A stretch of DNA of 51,700 nt, from positions 1 through 51,700 of the IMG/VR virus record IMGVR_UViG_3300021168_000005; one strand, given 5' to 3'. Source of the stretch: a virus. Its lineage: Duplodnaviria > Caudoviricetes. The position numbers and the translations under genes were made by a program. Below are positions 2,614 to 51,700 of the stretch, in pieces; within the stretch, counting starts at the first letter, position 1, and every line of letters starts with the position of its first letter. The notes beneath the pieces are model-generated. The model saw nothing but the letters and a program-made list of their open reading frames with translations. It was not told the origin of the DNA and did not search any database.

Positions 2614-2940
2614 ATGACAAAAGAAGATTATTTAAAACGTTTCAAAGAAATAACTGAAGAAATGTTTCGAATTACTAGTATAAAAAATCATGATTATTCT
2701 CCAGGGGATGAAGCTTTAGCCAACTTTAACGAGTTTGGCGCTGCTGGAGTGTTGGTTCGGATTTCAGATAAGACGAAGCGGTTAAAGACTGCTTTATGGC
2801 ATAAGCAAGATTATCTTGTTAATGAAACTGTTATTGACACTGTTACAGATTTAGCAGTCTATTCTGTAATATTAAGAATTCTTGCTGAAGAAGAAGCTAA
2901 AAAGGAAAAGCCGGCCATTATTGTAAAGGTTAGAAAATGA
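2614..2940 (+). CDS. DUF1599 / nucleotide-modification-associated domain protein (all-alpha NTP pyrophosphatase-like)
   Basis: KNHDYS...NF...GVLVRISDKTKRL...DTVTDLAVYS motif. Confidence 0.75.
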   Translation: MTKEDYLKRFKEITEEMFRITSIKNHDYSPGDEALANFNEFGAAGVLVRISDKTKRLKTALWHKQDYLVNETVIDTVTDLAVYSVILRILAEEEAKKEKPAIIVKVRK

Positions 2941-4049
2941 TAATCCGAGATTATGGAGATGAGAAGAACCCTATCTGGGTTGTAATGAGGGAAGCCTATG
3001 CTAAGGATAGTGAGCAAGGTTATCTACTGTCTTGTGGTTACGGCCATAACTTTAAAAAAACATGGAAGCTCAGTGGAGCAAGTGATCCTTTTATCACTTC
3101 TATCAATCCTGAACTTTCTATTCCTTATGATTGGGCTTCTCAATCTCTGCTCTTTCTTACAAAGATTAATAATTATCAACCGAAAATAATAGTCGTCCTT
3201 GGGGACGAGTTATTAAATACTTTTGTTCCGTATACAAAGCAGAAGAATGCTAAAGCTTCAAGCCTCACGAAGTGGGCTGGCTCACTCCTACGGAGTGATT
3301 TGTTGACATACGATCATTATATAATTCCAAGTTACGAACCAGACTTTGTATCTTCTAATTGGGATTACCATGAAATTCAGGGATTTATAGACTTCGGTCA
3401 TGTTAAAGAGGAGGTAGATTATTTCAATGCTAATAACAAACTTAATCCTCTTCCTATGCGTAGTATCATTACGAATCCTACATATGATAACTTATGTGAT
3501 TATCTACGGTGGCTTGTTTCTGAGTGGAGTGCAAATAGGCTATCTTTTGTCTCCTCAGATATCGAAACTATCCGTCCTAAAAAAAGTACTAACTATCATA
3601 CTATTGGCCATCCCGGTTACACTTATACTATTAGCCTTGCTCCATCAATTAAAGAAGCGATAAGTTTTTGTTTTTGGGATTATCCTGCGGAGCAAGCTAT
3701 TAAGATATGGAGACTTCTAAATGCTGTTCTTAGTCAGGTGCCACAGATTGGTCAAAATTATTTTAGCTTTGATTCCCATCATCTGGAAGCACTCGGATAT
3801 AAATTACATTTATCTTTATGCCAAGATACATTATTACGGCACCATATCCTCTGGCCCGGCCTTCCTCATAAGCTACAATTCCAAACTAGACAATACACCA
3901 GAGAACCCTACTATAAAGACGAAGGGAAAAATTGGAGTTCTAAACAAAAGCATCAACTTATGAGGTATAATTGTCTCGATGCTATGGTAACATACGAGAT
4001 TTATCTCGCTCAAGAAGGAGAATTTAATGACCGACCGCATCTTCGTTAA
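2937..4049 (+). CDS. DNA polymerase A N-terminal half: degenerate UDG-like domain plus 3'-5' exonuclease
   Basis: Family-4 UDG-like N-terminus (PKIIVVLG, IIPSYEP). Exo I SSDIET, Exo II GQNYFSFD, Exo III YNCLDA. Confidence 0.8.
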   Translation: MIIRDYGDEKNPIWVVMREAYAKDSEQGYLLSCGYGHNFKKTWKLSGASDPFITSINPELSIPYDWASQSLLFLTKINNYQPKIIVVLGDELLNTFVPYTKQKNAKASSLTKWAGSLLRSDLLTYDHYIIPSYEPDFVSSNWDYHEIQGFIDFGHVKEEVDYFNANNKLNPLPMRSIITNPTYDNLCDYLRWLVSEWSANRLSFVSSDIETIRPKKSTNYHTIGHPGYTYTISLAPSIKEAISFCFWDYPAEQAIKIWRLLNAVLSQVPQIGQNYFSFDSHHLEALGYKLHLSLCQDTLLRHHILWPGLPHKLQFQTRQYTREPYYKDEGKNWSSKQKHQLMRYNCLDAMVTYEIYLAQEGEFNDRPHLR

Positions 4050-4785: not shown

Positions 4786-4961
4786 TGTTGCGACAAATAT
4801 ATCAAATAACATTATCTTATGCTACTTATGGAATCATTGTGGATAACGGCATTGTAATACATGCTCCGCCTATAGCACAATGGATGATAGGTAAGCATAT
4901 TAATGAAATAATGGATTGGGTAAACCGTAAACATGGAACAATTGATAACATCATCTTATGA
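4785..4961 (+). CDS. hypothetical 58-aa protein (not in ORF track)
   Basis: Translated by hand: MLRQIYQITLSYATYGIIVDNGIVIHAPPIAQWMIGKH..., TAATG coupling with the upstream gene. Confidence 0.55.
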   Translation: MLRQIYQITLSYATYGIIVDNGIVIHAPPIAQWMIGKHINEIMDWVNRKHGTIDNIIL

Positions 4962-6456
4962 ACACAAACTCGCAAATGCATATCATCGCATTGATAAACG
5001 AGGTTTGCTGTTTGATACTACTGCCCTTGAACAGGTCAGAGTCAAGGTTCAATCGGAACTTGATAACATCTGCGGTTGGTTTACTAATCAATGGAGTTAT
5101 CCTGTATTCATAGGGGCAAAAAAGGGTATCCCAAAAGATACGAAATTTCTGAATTTAAATAGCCCTCAGAAAGTTCTAGAAGCTTTTAAAGAGCAAGGTT
5201 ATAAAGTACCAAAGGTACGGATTAAGAATGTTGAAAGTGATGAATATGAATGGAATGAAAGTGTTAAAGAACTTGCCATGCGTAAGCTTATGGCTGATCC
5301 TACTTTGTGGCCTCATCCTCAAGGCGGAGATGCCATTAAAAAATATCTTGATTTAAAAGAATTAGTAACTTTCCGAAATAGGAATATAAATGCACGTTTT
5401 CGTAGCGTACCTTACGGTGCAATTTTTTATTCTAGTTATAATGTTGCTAGTACAGTTACTGGCAGACGCGGGTCACGAAAAAATATATTCGGTTTTGGAG
5501 GAAATGGGCAGAATTTTCCTACGAGGACTTCTTCTAGTGACGATTTTCGTAAGTGTATTATTGCTAGGCCCCGCCGTTTGTTCTTTTTTGTGGATCAAAA
5601 GCAAGCTGAAGACTGGCCAGTTCAAGCACTTGCAAAAAATTATGAAGCTTTAGAGGAGATGCGTAAAGGTGTTAATAGACATTATAAGTTCGCTAGTCTT
5701 ATTTTTGGTCGTAGTATTGATAGTCTTAGGATTGGTAGAAATAATCACGAGTTCGAAGCTGAGCTTCAATATAATCTTGGCAAACGTGGTCGCCATGCTA
5801 ATAATTATGGGATGCGTGCTGATAGGTTTTCTGAAATTTTAACTACTGAAGGTTACTCTGTACCTAAGTCAACTTGTGAGGTTATCCTTGACAAGATCAA
5901 TAAAGCCGACCCCAACGTCGATGGAGTTTTTCATTCGTATATCCAGAAACAAATCTACGATACAAGAATTTTGCGAACTCCACTTGGACGAGAACGCCAG
6001 TTCTTTGGAGTTAGACAGAATGATAAGAATTATGCAATTCTTAATGAAGCGTATTCTTACATACCACAGTCTACAATCGGTGATAATACTGGGCTTGCCA
6101 TACTCTACTTGGATGCGTGTAATGATTACGTTGTACAGGAAGGACATGACAGTATTATCCAAGAGTTACCTGATTCCTTACAAGAACTACTCAAAGTTTA
6201 TGAAGATACTACGAAAGCATTTAAAAGAATTATCACTTTCGATAACGGGATTAGCGTTGAAATCCCTATTGAGGGAAAACTCGGGTTTGACTGGTTCAAT
6301 ACAGTAGAAATTAAAAGTTGGACTCCTGAAGGCATCGCAGATGCTTATAAAGAACTCCATGAAAAGTATCATAATAGATATGAAGAAAAACAACAAAATA
6401 TAGTCATACCAAGGGAGCAAAATGCCACGACTGTTAACGAAGTCATGGCTGGATAG
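4933..6456 (+). CDS. polA: DNA polymerase A, polymerase domain (C-terminal half of split PolA)
   Basis: TVTGR, NGQNFP, motif A VDQKQAED, motif B GKRGRHANNYG, TPLGRER, motif C GHDS. Confidence 0.9.
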   Translation: MEQLITSSYEHKLANAYHRIDKRGLLFDTTALEQVRVKVQSELDNICGWFTNQWSYPVFIGAKKGIPKDTKFLNLNSPQKVLEAFKEQGYKVPKVRIKNVESDEYEWNESVKELAMRKLMADPTLWPHPQGGDAIKKYLDLKELVTFRNRNINARFRSVPYGAIFYSSYNVASTVTGRRGSRKNIFGFGGNGQNFPTRTSSSDDFRKCIIARPRRLFFFVDQKQAEDWPVQALAKNYEALEEMRKGVNRHYKFASLIFGRSIDSLRIGRNNHEFEAELQYNLGKRGRHANNYGMRADRFSEILTTEGYSVPKSTCEVILDKINKADPNVDGVFHSYIQKQIYDTRILRTPLGRERQFFGVRQNDKNYAILNEAYSYIPQSTIGDNTGLAILYLDACNDYVVQEGHDSIIQELPDSLQELLKVYEDTTKAFKRIITFDNGISVEIPIEGKLGFDWFNTVEIKSWTPEGIADAYKELHEKYHNRYEEKQQNIVIPREQNATTVNEVMAG

Positions 6457-7627: not shown

Positions 7628-7812
7628 ATGAATTTAATCAATGTCCAACATGTAAACATTCTCTTGAGGATAACCAACATGGGTTCGATCAAAATGATGG
7701 ATACATGGATGGTGATAAATTGATCCTCTATGGAACTTGCACGTATTGTAAGATTTGTAATCCAACTTTGTTTCGTAAAAAGGAGTGGAAAGATGCCTCT
7801 AACGCTAGATGA
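7609..7812 (+). CDS. small Zn-finger protein
   Basis: CPTCKH...H...CTYCKIC; start may be 7624. Confidence 0.6.
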   Translation: MDEYSMNEFNQCPTCKHSLEDNQHGFDQNDGYMDGDKLILYGTCTYCKICNPTLFRKKEWKDASNAR

Positions 7813-8137
7813 ATATCAAAAAACTTGCAAAGATACAAGAGCTTATAAAGATTACGGCCAAGGTACAATCGGTCCCGTATCTTATTGTGTTCTGGGTCTT
7901 TGTGGTGAAGCTGGAGAAGTAGCAAATAAAATCAAGAAAATCCTGCGCGGAGATTATATTCTCGATGCGCTAGCAATAGACCAAATTCTTGATGAGCTTG
8001 GCGATGTTCTTTGGTACACTGCCATGCTTGCAGATGAGCTTAATGCTGATCTATCGGTTGTTGCTATGAAGAATTTAAACAAGCTCCGCTTGAGAAAAAA
8101 TATGAACACTATAAAAGGAACTGGAGATAAACGATGA
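7793..8137 (+). CDS. mazG: MazG-like nucleotide pyrophosphohydrolase
   Basis: LGLCGEAGEVANKIKK...ELGDVLWY; AGGAG RBS favours the ATG at 7793. Confidence 0.88.
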   Translation: MPLTLDEYQKTCKDTRAYKDYGQGTIGPVSYCVLGLCGEAGEVANKIKKILRGDYILDALAIDQILDELGDVLWYTAMLADELNADLSVVAMKNLNKLRLRKNMNTIKGTGDKR

Positions 8138-8703
8138 AGTCAAAAGATAATTTTGATCCAAAAGAATGGGCCGTTATTAATGAAAGTGAAGCTTTACGTG
8201 CTGTTGATGATAGAATTTTAGTTCTCGAAGATGAATTTCGTTCAGGTTTAGAATGTTCTTCTTGCAAAGGTAAAGGCCATACAGATATAGTCTGTAAATA
8301 TTGTAAAGGTACTACATTTTACAAAGCAGACCGTGATAGCGGCGCCTGTCCTGACTGTGAAGTCGGCACTTTAGGGATTAGAAAGTCCTTTGGATACGAG
8401 CTTTGCAGTGTATGCAAGGGCCGTGGAGCGTCTGTAATAATTCCTGACTCATCTAAGCGTCCAACACTGACGGGGCGCGTTATATCAATCGGCAGGAATG
8501 TCACAGAGTTTCGGGTCGGTGATCGGGTATTATTTACGAATTACACTGGTACAGATTTTACTGTCTCTGGTACGAAGTTAAGAATTATGAAACAGTACGA
8601 TGTGTGTTGTGAACATAAACAGCTTTCTAGAAAAGAAAAAACTCCGCAGAGCGGAGCTATTAGAGATGAACTTGTTAGTGCTGGTGTACAACCTTTAGAT
8701 TAA
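8134..8703 (+). CDS. groES: GroES/Cpn10 co-chaperonin with inserted DnaJ-type zinc-finger domain
   Basis: LRAVDDRILV ... IIPDSSKRPTLTGRVISIG ... VGDRVLFTNYTGT ... IMKQYD matches GroES. The insert has four CxxC(xGxG) repeats. Confidence 0.85.
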   Translation: MKSKDNFDPKEWAVINESEALRAVDDRILVLEDEFRSGLECSSCKGKGHTDIVCKYCKGTTFYKADRDSGACPDCEVGTLGIRKSFGYELCSVCKGRGASVIIPDSSKRPTLTGRVISIGRNVTEFRVGDRVLFTNYTGTDFTVSGTKLRIMKQYDVCCEHKQLSRKEKTPQSGAIRDELVSAGVQPLD

Positions 8704-36450: not shown

Positions 36451-38208
36451 TTAATAACCTTGCGAACCTACTTTACGCCGCTTAAATTGTTTAGCCTGTT
36501 GCGTAAGAAATTCTGAAATTTCTCTACTACTCATAGCGTCCATATCGAAGGTCTGAACACCGTAACCAAGAACATCAAGAATATCACGAGTAGCATGAAA
36601 AGGGTACTCCAAGTATTCGGAAATGAATTGCTCGTGTCCCGTGCGAAGACAATAAAACTCACCACGAGCAAACATAGGCTCAAGAGCATCAATACGATTA
36701 ATTTTGGCATCCTTACTATTATCTTTCTTGAACTCATTAATCTTAGTAAAGGTCCACTTTCCAGCTTTCTTATTTGTTTCGCTCGCAACTTCTAAGTGGT
36801 ACTTGAGCCATTTTTGCGCTCCAATAGTTTCAAGCCACGGTTCTTTGATTTTCCACTTTTCACCAAATTGAAATAGTTTACTAACCAAATCCGCATGAGA
36901 GGAATTGTCTGCATACAAATCCAAAAGATATACGCGAAAAGGCAATTCCAAAGTATAACCAAGAACAACAAGAGCGTGCCGTGAACGCCCTTCCGTTCCA
37001 GCGTGATTAGGGTCAAGCAAAAGAACCCGCTGTAAATGAGAAGGAAAAAGATTTTTGATAACCTGTCCATTTTTAGCTTCGTGTATTATCTGTACTCTTT
37101 TATCCCCCTTCAAGGGATCTACGGCTTGATATCGAAAATAATTTAAGTAAGACTCTTTAAATTTAGCATCAGTCGGAGGAACAGGGCTATTAAGAAATTG
37201 ACAGCTAAAAAAATAAGTGCCAAGCCGCGCTTTCCACCTATCGAGCTTCTTCCAGCTAAACTCGTGAGGAAATATAATCTTGCCACTAGGATGTTTGTCA
37301 CAACAGCCGCCAACAGCACTATGACTAGTAATTCTAAAGTACGATTCATTTTTACGAATCCAGTGATTAAGGTCTTTGTAACTCCACCTATTTCCGATTA
37401 CAACTTCGTCGTTATCTGCTTCAGGATCATTAGGATCACTATCAAAGGCTCCAACGAGTAACTTATGGTAGTCGATTGTACCATTCATTACTATTTCAGA
37501 TTCTAATGCTTCTTTTCCTACTAAATCATCTTCGATGGCTCGTTTATAATGCCGTGACTGTAATGCAGTTCCAACTGATAAGTAATCGTAAGTTCCTTCT
37601 CCATCAGCGGTTCTTCCACTACGCTTATGCGTCTTAGTTGTAACACTCCAATTACATGAGGTATCCGGTTTAATCTCGGAATAGAGTCTAGTGAAGAAAT
37701 CATTATTTTGATATTGGTTATCAACTCGTACTCCGAGTTTACCAATATTTTCTTTATTTTCGGACACAAGCAACGTCCTTGTATCTTGGTCATGCGCTCT
37801 ACGCATCCATTTAATCCACTCATCTCCATATCCCAAGGCGCGCATGAACTTCTCGTCCTCATCATTAAACGGCAAAGCCCACCATATAGGAGCGGATTCA
37901 CTACCGATCGTAGACTTGAAGTGGTCACGCGGTATCTCTATTATATCCTTTAATCTTTCAGATTCGAACAACTCACAGATGTCTTTATGCAAATACTCTC
38001 GTAAGCGATGCTTACGCAGTATAATTTTAGAGAAATAATAAAGAGAACCGAAACCATTAAGTCTATGTATAACATCTGCAACCTTTGGTGCTAACCCCGT
38101 AGGGTCTATAATAGTCCAATGATTAGCCCAACTCTTCGAGTTTTCTTGCTGTAACTGATCTACTAATCCATCAAGTTCTGTCGTTATATCTGTGGTCGAA
38201 GTAGGCAT
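36451..38208 (-). CDS. terL: terminase large subunit
   Basis: Walker A variant PRDHFKST, IEDDLV, GNRW, FSCQFLNSP, nuclease LLDPN and RDILDVL. Confidence 0.9.
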   Translation of the reverse strand: MPTSTTDITTELDGLVDQLQQENSKSWANHWTIIDPTGLAPKVADVIHRLNGFGSLYYFSKIILRKHRLREYLHKDICELFESERLKDIIEIPRDHFKSTIGSESAPIWWALPFNDEDEKFMRALGYGDEWIKWMRRAHDQDTRTLLVSENKENIGKLGVRVDNQYQNNDFFTRLYSEIKPDTSCNWSVTTKTHKRSGRTADGEGTYDYLSVGTALQSRHYKRAIEDDLVGKEALESEIVMNGTIDYHKLLVGAFDSDPNDPEADNDEVVIGNRWSYKDLNHWIRKNESYFRITSHSAVGGCCDKHPSGKIIFPHEFSWKKLDRWKARLGTYFFSCQFLNSPVPPTDAKFKESYLNYFRYQAVDPLKGDKRVQIIHEAKNGQVIKNLFPSHLQRVLLLDPNHAGTEGRSRHALVVLGYTLELPFRVYLLDLYADNSSHADLVSKLFQFGEKWKIKEPWLETIGAQKWLKYHLEVASETNKKAGKWTFTKINEFKKDNSKDAKINRIDALEPMFARGEFYCLRTGHEQFISEYLEYPFHATRDILDVLGYGVQTFDMDAMSSREISEFLTQQAKQFKRRKVGSQGY

Positions 38209-46932: not shown

Positions 46933-47661
46933 GTGACTGAAGAAAACAAACTCGAAAAACCATCAAACATCGTTGAGATGTTTAAACCTAAGAAGTGGGG
47001 CATAGCTGCGGCAAAAGAACAAGCGAAGAAAGCAATTGCAGATTTAGACCCATCTACGATGGAACATCGTCTTGGAATCGTTTTCGATGATAGTGGTAGT
47101 ATGGGTTCTAAAGTAGATGATAAAACAAAAATAGATCATGCTCATGCAGGAATAAGAAACTTCACTGCACAATGTAATCCCAAGGATACTTCGTTAGCGA
47201 TTTATCCGCTTAATAAAACACCGCAGGCATTAACCTGCAATTACGACGTTCTCAATCTTTATGTAGGCACCATCAGAGAAAGTGGTGGAACTCCGTTATA
47301 TACAATCACAACTAAAATGCTCAACGAAGCTGATCTTACTCGTGGAGTATTATTTTCTGACGGGTCACCAACAGACGGTCATGCTGGTTATGGAGAAGAA
47401 TACGATAAAGACTTGAAAGAGGATATGATTAATTTGGCAATAGCCAAGAAAGTTCCTCTTGATACAATCTTTATTGGTTACGACGGCGAAAGTGGTTATG
47501 ATCTTCTGAAAGAAATAGCCGATCGCACAGGCGGTATCTTTGTTCATTTTAAAGATGCCAAGGCGCTAGGAGCTTCGCTTAAATACTTAGCACCCGCCTT
47601 GCGTGGAATCTTGATGAATGCAGAACTCAAAGAGAAAATACAACGTGGGGAAACAATATGA
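46933..47661 (+). CDS. von Willebrand factor A domain protein
   Basis: MIDAS DDSGS, GGTPL, LFSDGSP, LLKEIADRTGG. Confidence 0.9.
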   Translation: MTEENKLEKPSNIVEMFKPKKWGIAAAKEQAKKAIADLDPSTMEHRLGIVFDDSGSMGSKVDDKTKIDHAHAGIRNFTAQCNPKDTSLAIYPLNKTPQALTCNYDVLNLYVGTIRESGGTPLYTITTKMLNEADLTRGVLFSDGSPTDGHAGYGEEYDKDLKEDMINLAIAKKVPLDTIFIGYDGESGYDLLKEIADRTGGIFVHFKDAKALGASLKYLAPALRGILMNAELKEKIQRGETI

Positions 47662-48800
47662 ATCAGGTTAATAATATGAATCTAGAACAAACCAACAATA
47701 TAATTGCCCTTGGGCAGAAACTTGTTGGTTTAGGCATCGAAGCAAAATTCAGCCACGTTGAAGAAGGTCCGGTTGTCACAGTCTATTATTTTAAACTTGA
47801 CAGCGGCGAATCTGTTGCTAGAGTTATAAAACGAGCAGAAGATTTTGCTTTAGCAATGGAACAAGATAAAGTGATGGTTCAACGTGTCGGCGGTTTAATT
47901 GCCGTATTCGTTCCCAATGCAGAAAAAAAGATTGTAGACTTTAAGGATTATCTATACTGGTATCTCAATGATCCGAAAGTTAAAGCGCAAGCTCTTCCAA
48001 TTCCTTTGGGAGTTGATTATCGTGGTAATAAGAGTACTTTCGATTTAGTAGATATGCCACACTGTTTAATTACAGGTTCTACTAATAGCGGAAAATCCGT
48101 ACTCGAAGCGGCGATTCTTTCAGCGCTAAGCTTACATCGCGCGTCTAACGAGCTTAATTTCTATCTCTGCGATACTAAAATGGTCGATCTTCCACTTTTT
48201 AAAGATTTCCCACATGTAAAAGTAGTCGCAGATAACGTCCAAGCTTTTCATAATATGATGACTTGGATTATGCAAGAAACGCGGCGAAGACTCGCCGTCT
48301 TGCAAGGAGCTAGCTGTAGGAAAATCCAAGACTATCATAATATGTATAGCGGAGATATATCTATGATGCCGTATATCATAGTAATGATAGATGAGTTTGG
48401 AGACTTGATGGATCTTGACTCTGCAATTCGTAAAGGAGGCGATACCCTTGACGAAGTTCCTACCGTTAAACAATGGATTAAAAGTGCATCCCAAATATGC
48501 CGTGCAGCAGGCGTACATCTTATCTGTTGTACCCAACGCGCAAGCGTTAAAGTTGTTGATGGTGACATCAAAGCTAACCTACCTTGCAGGATTTCCCTTC
48601 GGTTGCCAACCCAAACGGATTCTCGTACTATTCTCGGTATTGGGGGAGCGGAGAATTTATTGGGCAATGGTGACATGCTTATCGCAAGGCCGGGAAAAGA
48701 TGCTCTTGAACGTTTTCACGGTCCATTTGTGTCGATGAATGATATAGCAGCGCTAATTTCTCAATATGATATGATGAAAACTATGTTCGCACCTAAATAA
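47658..48800 (+). CDS. FtsK/SpoIIIE-family ATPase (alpha+beta motor only)
   Basis: Alpha domain (GPVVTVY, VPN), PHCLITGSTNSGKS, VMIDEFGDL, RAAGVHLICCTQR, GAENLLGNGDML. Confidence 0.9.
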   Translation: MNQVNNMNLEQTNNIIALGQKLVGLGIEAKFSHVEEGPVVTVYYFKLDSGESVARVIKRAEDFALAMEQDKVMVQRVGGLIAVFVPNAEKKIVDFKDYLYWYLNDPKVKAQALPIPLGVDYRGNKSTFDLVDMPHCLITGSTNSGKSVLEAAILSALSLHRASNELNFYLCDTKMVDLPLFKDFPHVKVVADNVQAFHNMMTWIMQETRRRLAVLQGASCRKIQDYHNMYSGDISMMPYIIVMIDEFGDLMDLDSAIRKGGDTLDEVPTVKQWIKSASQICRAAGVHLICCTQRASVKVVDGDIKANLPCRISLRLPTQTDSRTILGIGGAENLLGNGDMLIARPGKDALERFHGPFVSMNDIAALISQYDMMKTMFAPK

Positions 48801-50891: not shown

Positions 50892-51700
50892 TTGAATCCC
50901 ATCCAAGCGGCAGAAAAATATCATTGGGTTGTCTACGACAGTAAGACTAACACTATTGATCTTTTTATGGATCACCAGATGTTATCAACCTTGCGAACTT
51001 GTGAATCTAAGTTTGTTCTTGAACATATCCTCAATATCCGTCCGAAAGGCCATAAAGCTTGGAGTCTGGTATTCGGAGCTTGGATGCATTACTGCTTAGA
51101 GTTTTTTTACAACTCTATAAAAAATGATCCTAATGGCAGTCCTGTTAATGTTAATACATACGCTGCTTATGGTGCTGAAAAATGGAGAGAGTTTAACTTA
51201 GATGCTTACAAAGGCGAAACAAAGTATGAAGATATCGCAGGATGGAACGGAGCACTTGCGCTTCTTATAGAATATTATGCATTTTACATGCAACAACGTT
51301 TAAGAGTTGTTGCGTGCGAAATTCCTTTCGGTTTCGAAAAAGAAGTTTTCTTAGGACAATTCCATATATGGATAAATGGAATTCTAATTACTATTAACTG
51401 TTTTCTAACTGGCCGCATAGATATGCTCGTAGACAATGGTTCAATAATCGGTCCCGTCGATCATAAACATACTCATATTTTTCGCGGTGATGAGTATGAT
51501 AAATTTAATCCACACGACGGGATTTTAGGGTATATCTATGCGACCAATAAAATCATTGAAACTTATTTTCCCGGTTATAATAAACCCTGCATGGCAGGTT
51601 GGGTATTTCATATACAAGGAAAAGCACCTTCGGTGGAAAGAAAGACCAAAATATTGCGGCCTCGTTTTAAAGGTTCTAGGATTGATAAGACTCCAAGACA
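50892..51700 (+). CDS. PD-(D/E)XK Cas4/RecB-like exonuclease, 5' part (about 365 aa in total, ends at 416)
   Basis: Hand translation from TTG 50892 (AGGAG RBS): LSTLRTCESKF...FGAWMHYCLE...CEIPF...LTGRIDMLV...VDHK. Confidence 0.88.
   Translation, partial: MNPIQAAEKYHWVVYDSKTNTIDLFMDHQMLSTLRTCESKFVLEHILNIRPKGHKAWSLVFGAWMHYCLEFFYNSIKNDPNGSPVNVNTYAAYGAEKWREFNLDAYKGETKYEDIAGWNGALALLIEYYAFYMQQRLRVVACEIPFGFEKEVFLGQFHIWINGILITINCFLTGRIDMLVDNGSIIGPVDHKHTHIFRGDEYDKFNPHDGILGYIYATNKIIETYFPGYNKPCMAGWVFHIQGKAPSVERKTKILRPRFKGSRIDKTPR
51574..51700. repeat. 127-bp terminal direct repeat, copy 2
   Basis: Identical to 1-127. Confidence 0.95.

Follow-up and report, generated by a model that had tools for sequence, protein, structure and literature searches.

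The mobile loop of the co-chaperonin GroES is the textbook example of a disordered segment that folds on binding, and its flexibility is thought to set chaperonin cycling. Some phages bring a co-chaperonin of their own. T4 gp31 competes for GroEL, and the capsid protein gp23 cannot fold without it; it has 22-residue loops compared to 16 residues in GroES, no roof loops, and a cage that is 8% larger (PMC6318259). Marine et al. (2017, PMC5649160) reported clusters of viral GroES from marine viromes in which the roof hairpin is absent and loop residues are altered; the words zinc, cysteine, insertion and DnaJ are absent from the main text of that paper, and its supplementary alignments may show such sequences. 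Here we describe a gene at positions 8134..8703 of IMG/VR record IMGVR_UViG_3300021168_000005, a phage genome of 51,700 bp analysed over its whole length (the window). Judged by homology, the gene encodes a GroES (Cpn10) homologue with a DnaJ-type cysteine-rich (CR) zinc-finger domain inserted in the mobile loop. We lean towards reading the product as an orphan phage co-chaperonin that acts on host GroEL.

The gene was first pointed out in an earlier note written from the DNA letters alone. The open reading frame (ORF) and all of the strings quoted there are present as described, and the three core elements of that account, namely a GroES scaffold in the flanks, a DnaJ-type zinc finger within the mobile loop and a missing roof hairpin, are borne out by the comparisons below. 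The note's author did not recall this fusion being described. In agreement, our search of the literature, supplements excluded, found no paper on a zinc finger in GroES, Cpn10 or gp31.

The flanks of the insert match GroES

In Pfam, the window protein matches Cpn10 (PF00166) with an E-value of 1.4e-9 and 38.3 bits, compared to a gathering cut-off of 21.1, and its residues 100-159 cover positions 23-91 of the 93 in the profile. It also matches PHROG 3188, annotated 'co-chaperonin GroES' (1.2e-8). PF00166 was found in each of 27 relatives scanned singly. When a profile of 109 family sequences was compared to E. coli GroES using hhalign, residues 99-162 aligned with GroES 23-96 (probability 94.6%, E 6.9e-8). 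Residues 19-39, which would include the N-terminal strand that pairs with the neighbouring subunit in GroES, aligned with GroES 1-21, a weak match over a very short stretch (probability 32%, E 4.7e-4), and a weak alignment of chloroplast Cpn20 to this first-strand region has the same register as the GroES match. The best solved relatives in a profile search of the PDB were chloroplast Cpn20 and bacterial GroES, with Cpn20 chain 7ekq_R at the top (8.4e-16), and ESM Atlas placed the whole protein among viral Cpn10 clusters. By these alignments, the flanks are homologous to GroES.

The barrel core, GG-tripeptide and C-terminal loop arm are in register with GroES, as the first strand may be too, and the equivalent of Tyr71 is kept as Y or F; in the window protein it lies in a retained Y137-T-G139 motif of the beta-barrel core. 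In the hhalign register, A99-S100-V101-I102-I103 corresponds to GroES G23-G24-I25-V26-L27, and P104 then follows. The earlier note correctly placed the insert just before the docking tripeptide but took the tripeptide to be IIP, whereas the aligned residues are V101-I102-I103.

Compared to GroES, the protein differs in its 58-residue finger, in a roof shorter by nine residues (gaps of 7 + 2 in both Pfam and hhalign), in an extension of 18 residues at the N-terminus and a tail of 29 at the C-terminus, and in the lack of an encoded groEL partner. The extension and the tail, along with the conserved linker D33-E40 that leads into the finger, had gone unmentioned in the earlier note. Because gp31 and some viral GroES proteins also lack the roof hairpin, its absence does not disqualify the protein as a Cpn10. 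Relative to chloroplast Cpn20 there is a gap of only one residue at the roof site, so the Cpn20 domain is also without a long roof hairpin; however, Cpn20 is a tandem of two Cpn10 domains and has no zinc finger.

Sequence kinship to gp31 was not detectable by hhalign (3.8%, E 0.011). The features shared with gp31 and RB49 CocO are that all are phage-encoded without a phage GroEL, lack roof loops and have an enlarged mobile loop (PMC6318259, PMC5649160), and by analogy the same job, folding of phage proteins on host GroEL, would be expected. The enlargement is of a different kind: in gp31 a flexible peptide has simply become longer, at 22 residues, while the insert described here is predicted to be a folded metal-binding domain.

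The insert matches the DnaJ cysteine-rich domain

The CR domain of DnaJ is likewise an insertion into a beta-domain. Its four cysteine motifs hold two zinc ions, one bound by motifs 1 and 4 and the second by motifs 2 and 3. Residues 36-98 of our family profile aligned with E. coli DnaJ 139-204 (hhalign, probability 94.9%, E 4.7e-8), and each of the four Cys pairs fell opposite its DnaJ counterpart. The insert itself has 58 residues and eight cysteines, arranged as the pairs C41/C44, C54/C57, C72/C75 and C91/C94. The four CxxC pairs are thus as the earlier note had them, but the full CxxCxGxG repeat that it gave to all four is complete only at motifs 1 and 4 of the window protein, and motifs 2 and 3 depart from it.

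Among the 27 relatives scanned singly, six match Pfam DnaJ_CXXCXGXG (PF00684), the best at 4.8e-8. A Pfam scan for a split Cpn10 with DnaJ_CXXCXGXG, which the note had proposed as a check, therefore finds the first domain throughout and the second in a minority. In P0121 the PF00684 match reaches 25.7 bits over positions 1-64 of 65, and in both P0121 and P0125, two long relatives, a full-length DnaJ profile match lies directly before the start of the Cpn10 match. The viral relative L003 matches TIGR02349, the bacterial DnaJ equivalog, over positions 139-251 (1.5e-7). The profile search also reached the solved structure of the DnaJ CR domain, PDB 1exk (E 0.017); an ESM Atlas search with the insert alone gave no usable match. 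No model in Pfam, PHROG or NCBIfam spans the combined architecture.

From the aligned profiles, we conclude that insert and DnaJ cysteine-rich domain are homologous and that the insert is placed between GroES 21 and 23, in the N-terminal arm of the mobile loop and directly before the tripeptide. Pfam found no J domain (PF00226) in the window protein, and so it is not an Hsp40. Relative to class A DnaJ, it also lacks the G/F region and the DnaJ C-terminal domains. BSD2 and anti-TRAP use the same module outside Hsp40 for protein-protein contacts, but those are free small proteins and not insertions in a co-chaperonin.

Two zinc sites are presumed in the insert, because eight cysteines are nearly invariant in the family and because variants with a single site keep motifs 1 and 4. 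An alternative zinc-binding module, the structural zinc lobe of alcohol dehydrogenase (ADH) type, was considered and rejected: ADH_N matches span only residues 113-137 of the barrel core and not the insert.

DnaJ and several plant DnaJ-like zinc-finger proteins have redox or disulfide-isomerase activity in vitro, and the finger could in principle be a module of this type. The homology to the DnaJ CR domain is all that speaks for this role. The protein is a cytoplasmic phage protein, the genome gives no hint of disulfide chemistry, and the eight cysteines appear to act as invariant metal ligands. We therefore regard a redox function as very improbable.

Zinc ligands and loop arms are conserved while the finger surface varies

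Conservation was determined in an alignment of 109 rows, hand-picked from 169 retrieved proteins as full-length and without long extra insertions. Six of the insert cysteines are present in all 109 rows and the other two in 108. D33, G114 and G139 are likewise found in 109/109 rows. Position 101 is I, L or V in every row, positions 102 and 103 are mostly I or V, P104 is kept in 104 rows, and position 137, the Tyr71 equivalent, is Y or F in 98. A chance origin of the Cys pattern was considered and is ruled out by the family-wide conservation of these residues.

Regional conservation, expressed as mean top-group frequency, is listed in Table 1. Cysteines aside, no segment of the family is better conserved than the linker running into the finger, D33-x-F-R-S-G-L-E40, and the non-ligand finger positions are among the least conserved regions. 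Four close viral genes gave whole-gene dN/dS values of 0.05-0.10 in 5/6 pairs that could be computed; dS is saturated and the values are rough. With the same caveat, dN was 0.14-0.30 for finger codons other than Cys and Gly, compared to 0.035-0.12 for the core. The gene is under purifying selection. Going by the regional frequencies and dN values together, there is little freedom to change in the zinc ligands, the docking motif and the two arms of the loop, while the finger surface drifts under constraint.

A variable finger on a conserved scaffold is also what would be expected of an assembly chaperone that works without GroEL. In such a protein, the GroES barrel would serve as a seven-fold scaffold on which seven DnaJ-type fingers hold unfolded or unassembled phage subunits. 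BSD2, a stand-alone DnaJ-like zinc-finger protein, holds Rubisco large subunits in a related manner, and the BSD2_CRD and Anti-TRAP profiles each match 4/27 of the relatives scanned singly. The divergence of the finger between lineages (0.38) would fit lineage-specific clients, and some relatives carry further zinc knuckles at the roof site (see below), as if displaying more binding modules. However, the GG-hydrophobic tripeptide-Pro motif is more conserved than the barrel core, which is hard to explain without GroEL, and we consider a GroEL-independent role rather unlikely.

The architecture is a widespread family with graded variants

A word-based search returned 21 clusters, all of them metagenomic. 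An HMMER scan of 1.84 billion representatives gave 3,679 matches at E<=1e-3, 221 at <=1e-10 and 83 at <=1e-30, the last of these being clusters at 50% identity. For the 169 proteins retrieved, exactly four CxxC pairs were found in 126, a CxxC pair no more than 11 residues before a hydrophobic tripeptide in 161, and four pairs upstream of the tripeptide with none downstream in 122. The earlier note had also suggested looking for the same architecture in viral databases, and our scan of IMG/VR yielded 41 loci, five of them on contigs already represented. The architecture is thus that of a widespread family and not a one-off.

The family was met only in viral or metagenomic DNA. The window stretch itself is present in two DNA runs of soil metagenomes, which may be its source, and no RNA run is listed as containing it. 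The sources of ten clusters, determined by exact-sequence look-up, were metagenomes only, and the sole name attached was 'co-chaperonin GroES (HSP10)'. Two scans of reference prokaryote genomes, which used one short pattern each and are weak evidence of absence, gave no relative. The named phages in INPHARED contain no full-length relative, with one weak match to the Cpn10 part only, and no match to the window terminase. INPHARED thus offers no cultured relative and no host.

Relatives P0085, P0138, P0145, P0149, P0151 and P0158 have two CxxC pairs, and in each it is motifs 1 and 4 that are retained. If the insert has the DnaJ topology, loss of the distal zinc site would leave motifs 1 and 4, so these deletion forms are as expected if both motifs share one zinc. 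In a tree of 161 of the 169 proteins, most of the forms with two or three CxxC pairs fall in one supported clade of 17. The other eight proteins were left out as shorter than 150 aa or without Cys; insert columns were kept, and the root is arbitrary, so no order of events is drawn from the tree.

Other relatives have gained cysteine motifs. An extra CxxCxGxG pair is present at the site of the roof hairpin in L007 (3124-3765; same contig as L014), P0074, P0086, P0097, P0122 and P0142 and, if the ring forms, would place seven further zinc knuckles around the top of the dome. The finger tip is enlarged in P0049 and P0163. In P0004, P0011 and P0014, the GroES part is preceded by an added Cys-rich stretch at the N-terminus, which contains another two CxxC pairs. 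Some relatives, including P0004, have long N-terminal extensions in which no Pfam domain, and in particular no J domain, was found. By sequence, the family thus appears to offer a natural graded series of one zinc site, two zinc sites and extra roof knuckles. The two loops that accept inserts here are the same two that were used to engineer human Cpn10 as a display scaffold.

It should also be noted that proteins of a high-GC branch (L002, L003, L007 and P0074) have, past the last strand, a tail that reads G-H-L-E-L-R-R and end in small residues, for example -G-S-A-A or -G-T-A-A. These C-termini loosely recall C-terminal degradation tags.

No GroEL gene in the window or in related records

The window is a complete phage genome with direct terminal repeats and an estimated completeness of 100%, and Cpn60 (PF00118) is absent from it. 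PF00118 was also absent from all 42 related viral records, 8 of which are at least 90% complete, while the same search was positive in 14/14 control genomes. Since the phage has no GroEL of its own, the protein is likely to act on the GroEL of its host, in the manner of T4 gp31. The ORF at 8134..8703 is the only Cpn10 match in the window genome, and each of 16 records examined has one Cpn10 gene. In G012 (the record of L049), the Cpn10 match is split across both record ends, so that this linear record is a circularly permuted genome opened inside the gene.

In 37 of the 41 IMG/VR loci, the terminase large subunit (TerL) gene lies 18-2035 nt downstream on the same strand, with portal next in 36 of those. 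Four of the 41 resemble the window in having the primase/helicase just upstream. Among the ORFs that separate the gene from TerL in relatives are HNH endonucleases, a family with the annotation primosomal protein, and others of no assigned function. Based on these shared neighbours, the gene is conserved across a large phage clade with a common TerL and portal. Its location at the boundary of replication and packaging genes is compatible with a morphogenetic role and is no proof of one.

The same data bear on a third possibility, that the protein is an inhibitor used in host takeover. A tight, poorly cycling lid could block host GroEL, or the protein could dock on another seven-fold ring such as ClpP, in either case shutting down a host function. 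Both loop arms are conserved and, with the DnaJ topology, a zinc site would join them, which should cut the entropic cost of binding. A chloroplast co-chaperonin complex has been reported in a preprint to bind and inhibit ClpP (10.1101/2021.07.26.453741). However, phages generally need GroEL for their own morphogenesis, as the gp31 precedent illustrates (PMC6318259), and the gene is a conserved single copy in a large clade, near packaging genes in most members. On balance, inhibition appears improbable.

A second gene of the window, coding for 176 aa, ends in a J domain (PF00226, 32.1 bits compared to a cut-off of 27.8), in which the HPD motif is present; its product has no PHROG match. The phage would therefore bring along an adaptor for host DnaK as well. 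J-domain ORFs occur in all five genomes in which the gene follows the primase (G000, G001, G010, G011 and G012), and in none of 17 records in which it precedes the terminase, only four of which are at least 90% complete. HSP70 was absent in 5/5 genomes searched.

A putative lid for the host folding cage

We read the computed results, namely the two homologies, the insertion site, the conservation, the purifying selection and the absence of a phage GroEL, as pointing to an orphan co-chaperonin that works as follows. A subunit of GroES fold, presumably assembled into a heptameric lid, would dock on host GroEL through V101-I102-I103. A CR domain with two zinc ions would be grafted on the loop in its N-terminal arm, with a single residue between it and the GG-tripeptide position. 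As motifs 1 and 4 share a zinc in the DnaJ topology, the two ends of the insert should lie together, and the finger would then act as a staple on the mobile loop and stand out from the elbow of that loop. With seven subunits per lid, the rim that meets GroEL would be ringed by seven fingers. Replacing host GroES during infection, such a lid would promote folding of phage proteins, most plausibly morphogenetic ones.

The finger itself could act in two ways. It may stiffen or lengthen the loop and so change affinity for GroEL and the geometry or height of the cage, by analogy with gp31, or its variable surface may bind lineage-specific clients. One of these two roles is most likely. In either case, a GroES-like lid with a DnaJ zinc finger in its docking loop would probably be a means by which the phage takes over the host's protein-folding cage.

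Several points weigh against this proposal. The window protein alone matches PF00684 with an E-value of only 0.057 and 14.1 bits, compared to a cut-off of 32.7. The NCBIfam GroES equivalog and subfamily cut-offs are missed by far (best 39.1 bits compared to 109), so this is no ordinary GroES, and the match of the N-terminal strand to GroES is weak (probability 32%). That the flanks fold as GroES does, that a ring forms and that a domain of 58 residues has room beside the tripeptide is presumed from sequence. Flexibility and disorder of the loop are believed to be important when GroES cycles; a stapled loop may fail to do so, and a rigid domain next to the docking motif might hinder cycling. 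The major capsid protein has only 317 aa, so the argument made for gp31, of a larger cage for a large capsid protein, is not obviously applicable. A role in head assembly is little supported by position, given the primosomal and HNH neighbours in relatives and the replication module in the window.

A more elaborate version of the orphan co-chaperonin would make the lid a client-handling device. A pre-formed, zinc-stapled docking hairpin would give it an advantage over host GroES, and the seven fingers at the cage mouth would capture phage polypeptides and pass them on. In the subclade of the window, with a phage J-domain protein and host DnaK, the parts of DnaJ would be split over two proteins and form a relay from Hsp70 to Hsp60. 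We hold this version to be possible but doubtful. If true, it would make the finger the first known case of a folded domain within the mobile loop of a co-chaperonin.

Returning to the simpler orphan co-chaperonin, the family seems to conserve a folded metal-binding domain and a docking tripeptide one residue apart, which suggests that a rigid insert is tolerated in the loop and apparently put to use. These proteins could serve as a system for studying how order and length of the loop relate to GroEL affinity and cage size, how client modules function on lids, and how phages compete with host GroES. The gene would also be a marker for host chaperone takeover in a large clade of uncultured phages, one branch of which adds a J-domain protein.

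Gene structure and neighbouring genes

Coordinates of the gene, its parts and the other genes discussed are given in Table 1. The ATG shares the sequence ATGA with the stop codon of the upstream MazG-like gene. The gene is the last of a + strand replication block, which comprises a Sak4-like annealing protein, a DNA polymerase in two pieces, the primase/helicase and the MazG-like gene, and it converges on a Tlde1-domain gene and a tail-fibre gene on the - strand.

Table 1. Positions, strands and supporting evidence for the features of the gene and for other genes in the window. Conservation is the mean top-group frequency in the 109-row alignment.
Feature	Position	Strand	Evidence or description	Conservation
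Cpn10/GroES homologue with inserted zinc-finger domain, whole gene	8134..8703	+	189 aa + stop; ORF list, sequence, Pfam Cpn10 above cut-off	
GGAG ribosome-binding site, 7 nt 5' of ATG	8123..8137	+	read from sequence	
N-terminal extension, residues 1-18	8134..8187	+	hhalign: GroES residue 1 = family residue 19	0.34
First beta strand of GroES fold, residues 19-32	8188..8229	+	aligned to GroES 1-14 (part of weak 1-21 match)	
Pre-insert linker D33-E40, N-terminal arm of mobile loop	8230..8253	+	aligned to GroES 15-21	0.85
DnaJ-type CR zinc-finger insert, residues 41-98, four CxxC pairs	8254..8427	+	hhalign to DnaJ, Cys conservation, Pfam/NCBIfam DnaJ matches in relatives	0.38 (non-ligand positions)
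A99-S100 (GG position) and hydrophobic tripeptide V101-I102-I103, equivalent of GroEL-docking motif	8428..8442	+	hhalign register	0.76 (GG + tripeptide)
C-terminal arm of mobile loop, P104-G114	8443..8475	+	aligned to GroES 28-38	0.75
GroES beta-barrel core, residues 115-160; roof hairpin deleted at ~122-125	8476..8613	+	Pfam, hhalign gaps	0.67
C-terminal tail, residues 161-189, past GroES end	8614..8700	+	conserved in close subfamily only	0.32
MazG-like gene	7730..8137	+	phrog_229, 4.3e-28	
Terminator-like hairpin and T-run	8640-8658	-	inside 3' end of 8134..8703	
Tlde1-domain protein, 123 aa	8700-9071	-	PF10908, 1.1e-11; phrog_24118	
DNA polymerase, first piece	2937-4049	+	phrog_17	
Four small ORFs, 58-85 aa	4027-4961		between polymerase pieces	
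DNA polymerase, second piece	4933-6456	+	phrog_17	
Major capsid protein, 317 aa	30348..31301	-		
Large terminase	36451..38208	-		
J-domain protein, 176 aa	45444..45974	+	PF00226, C-terminal	
FtsK/SpoIIIE-family ATPase	47658-48800	+	5.5e-29	
PD-(D/E)XK nuclease	50892-51698	+	1.1e-11	

The stop codon of the Tlde1-domain gene overlaps that of the GroES homologue by 4 nt. The terminator-like hairpin lies ~40 nt past the stop of this convergent gene; the region scanned contained five sites of this type compared to 3.2 expected, and the hairpin may be due to chance. No tRNA was found in the window, and a search of Rfam gave no match. The two ORFs that encode the DNA polymerase are ~880 nt apart, and no Rfam intron family was detected. 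The early region of the genome includes the FtsK/SpoIIIE-family ATPase and the PD-(D/E)XK nuclease listed in Table 1.

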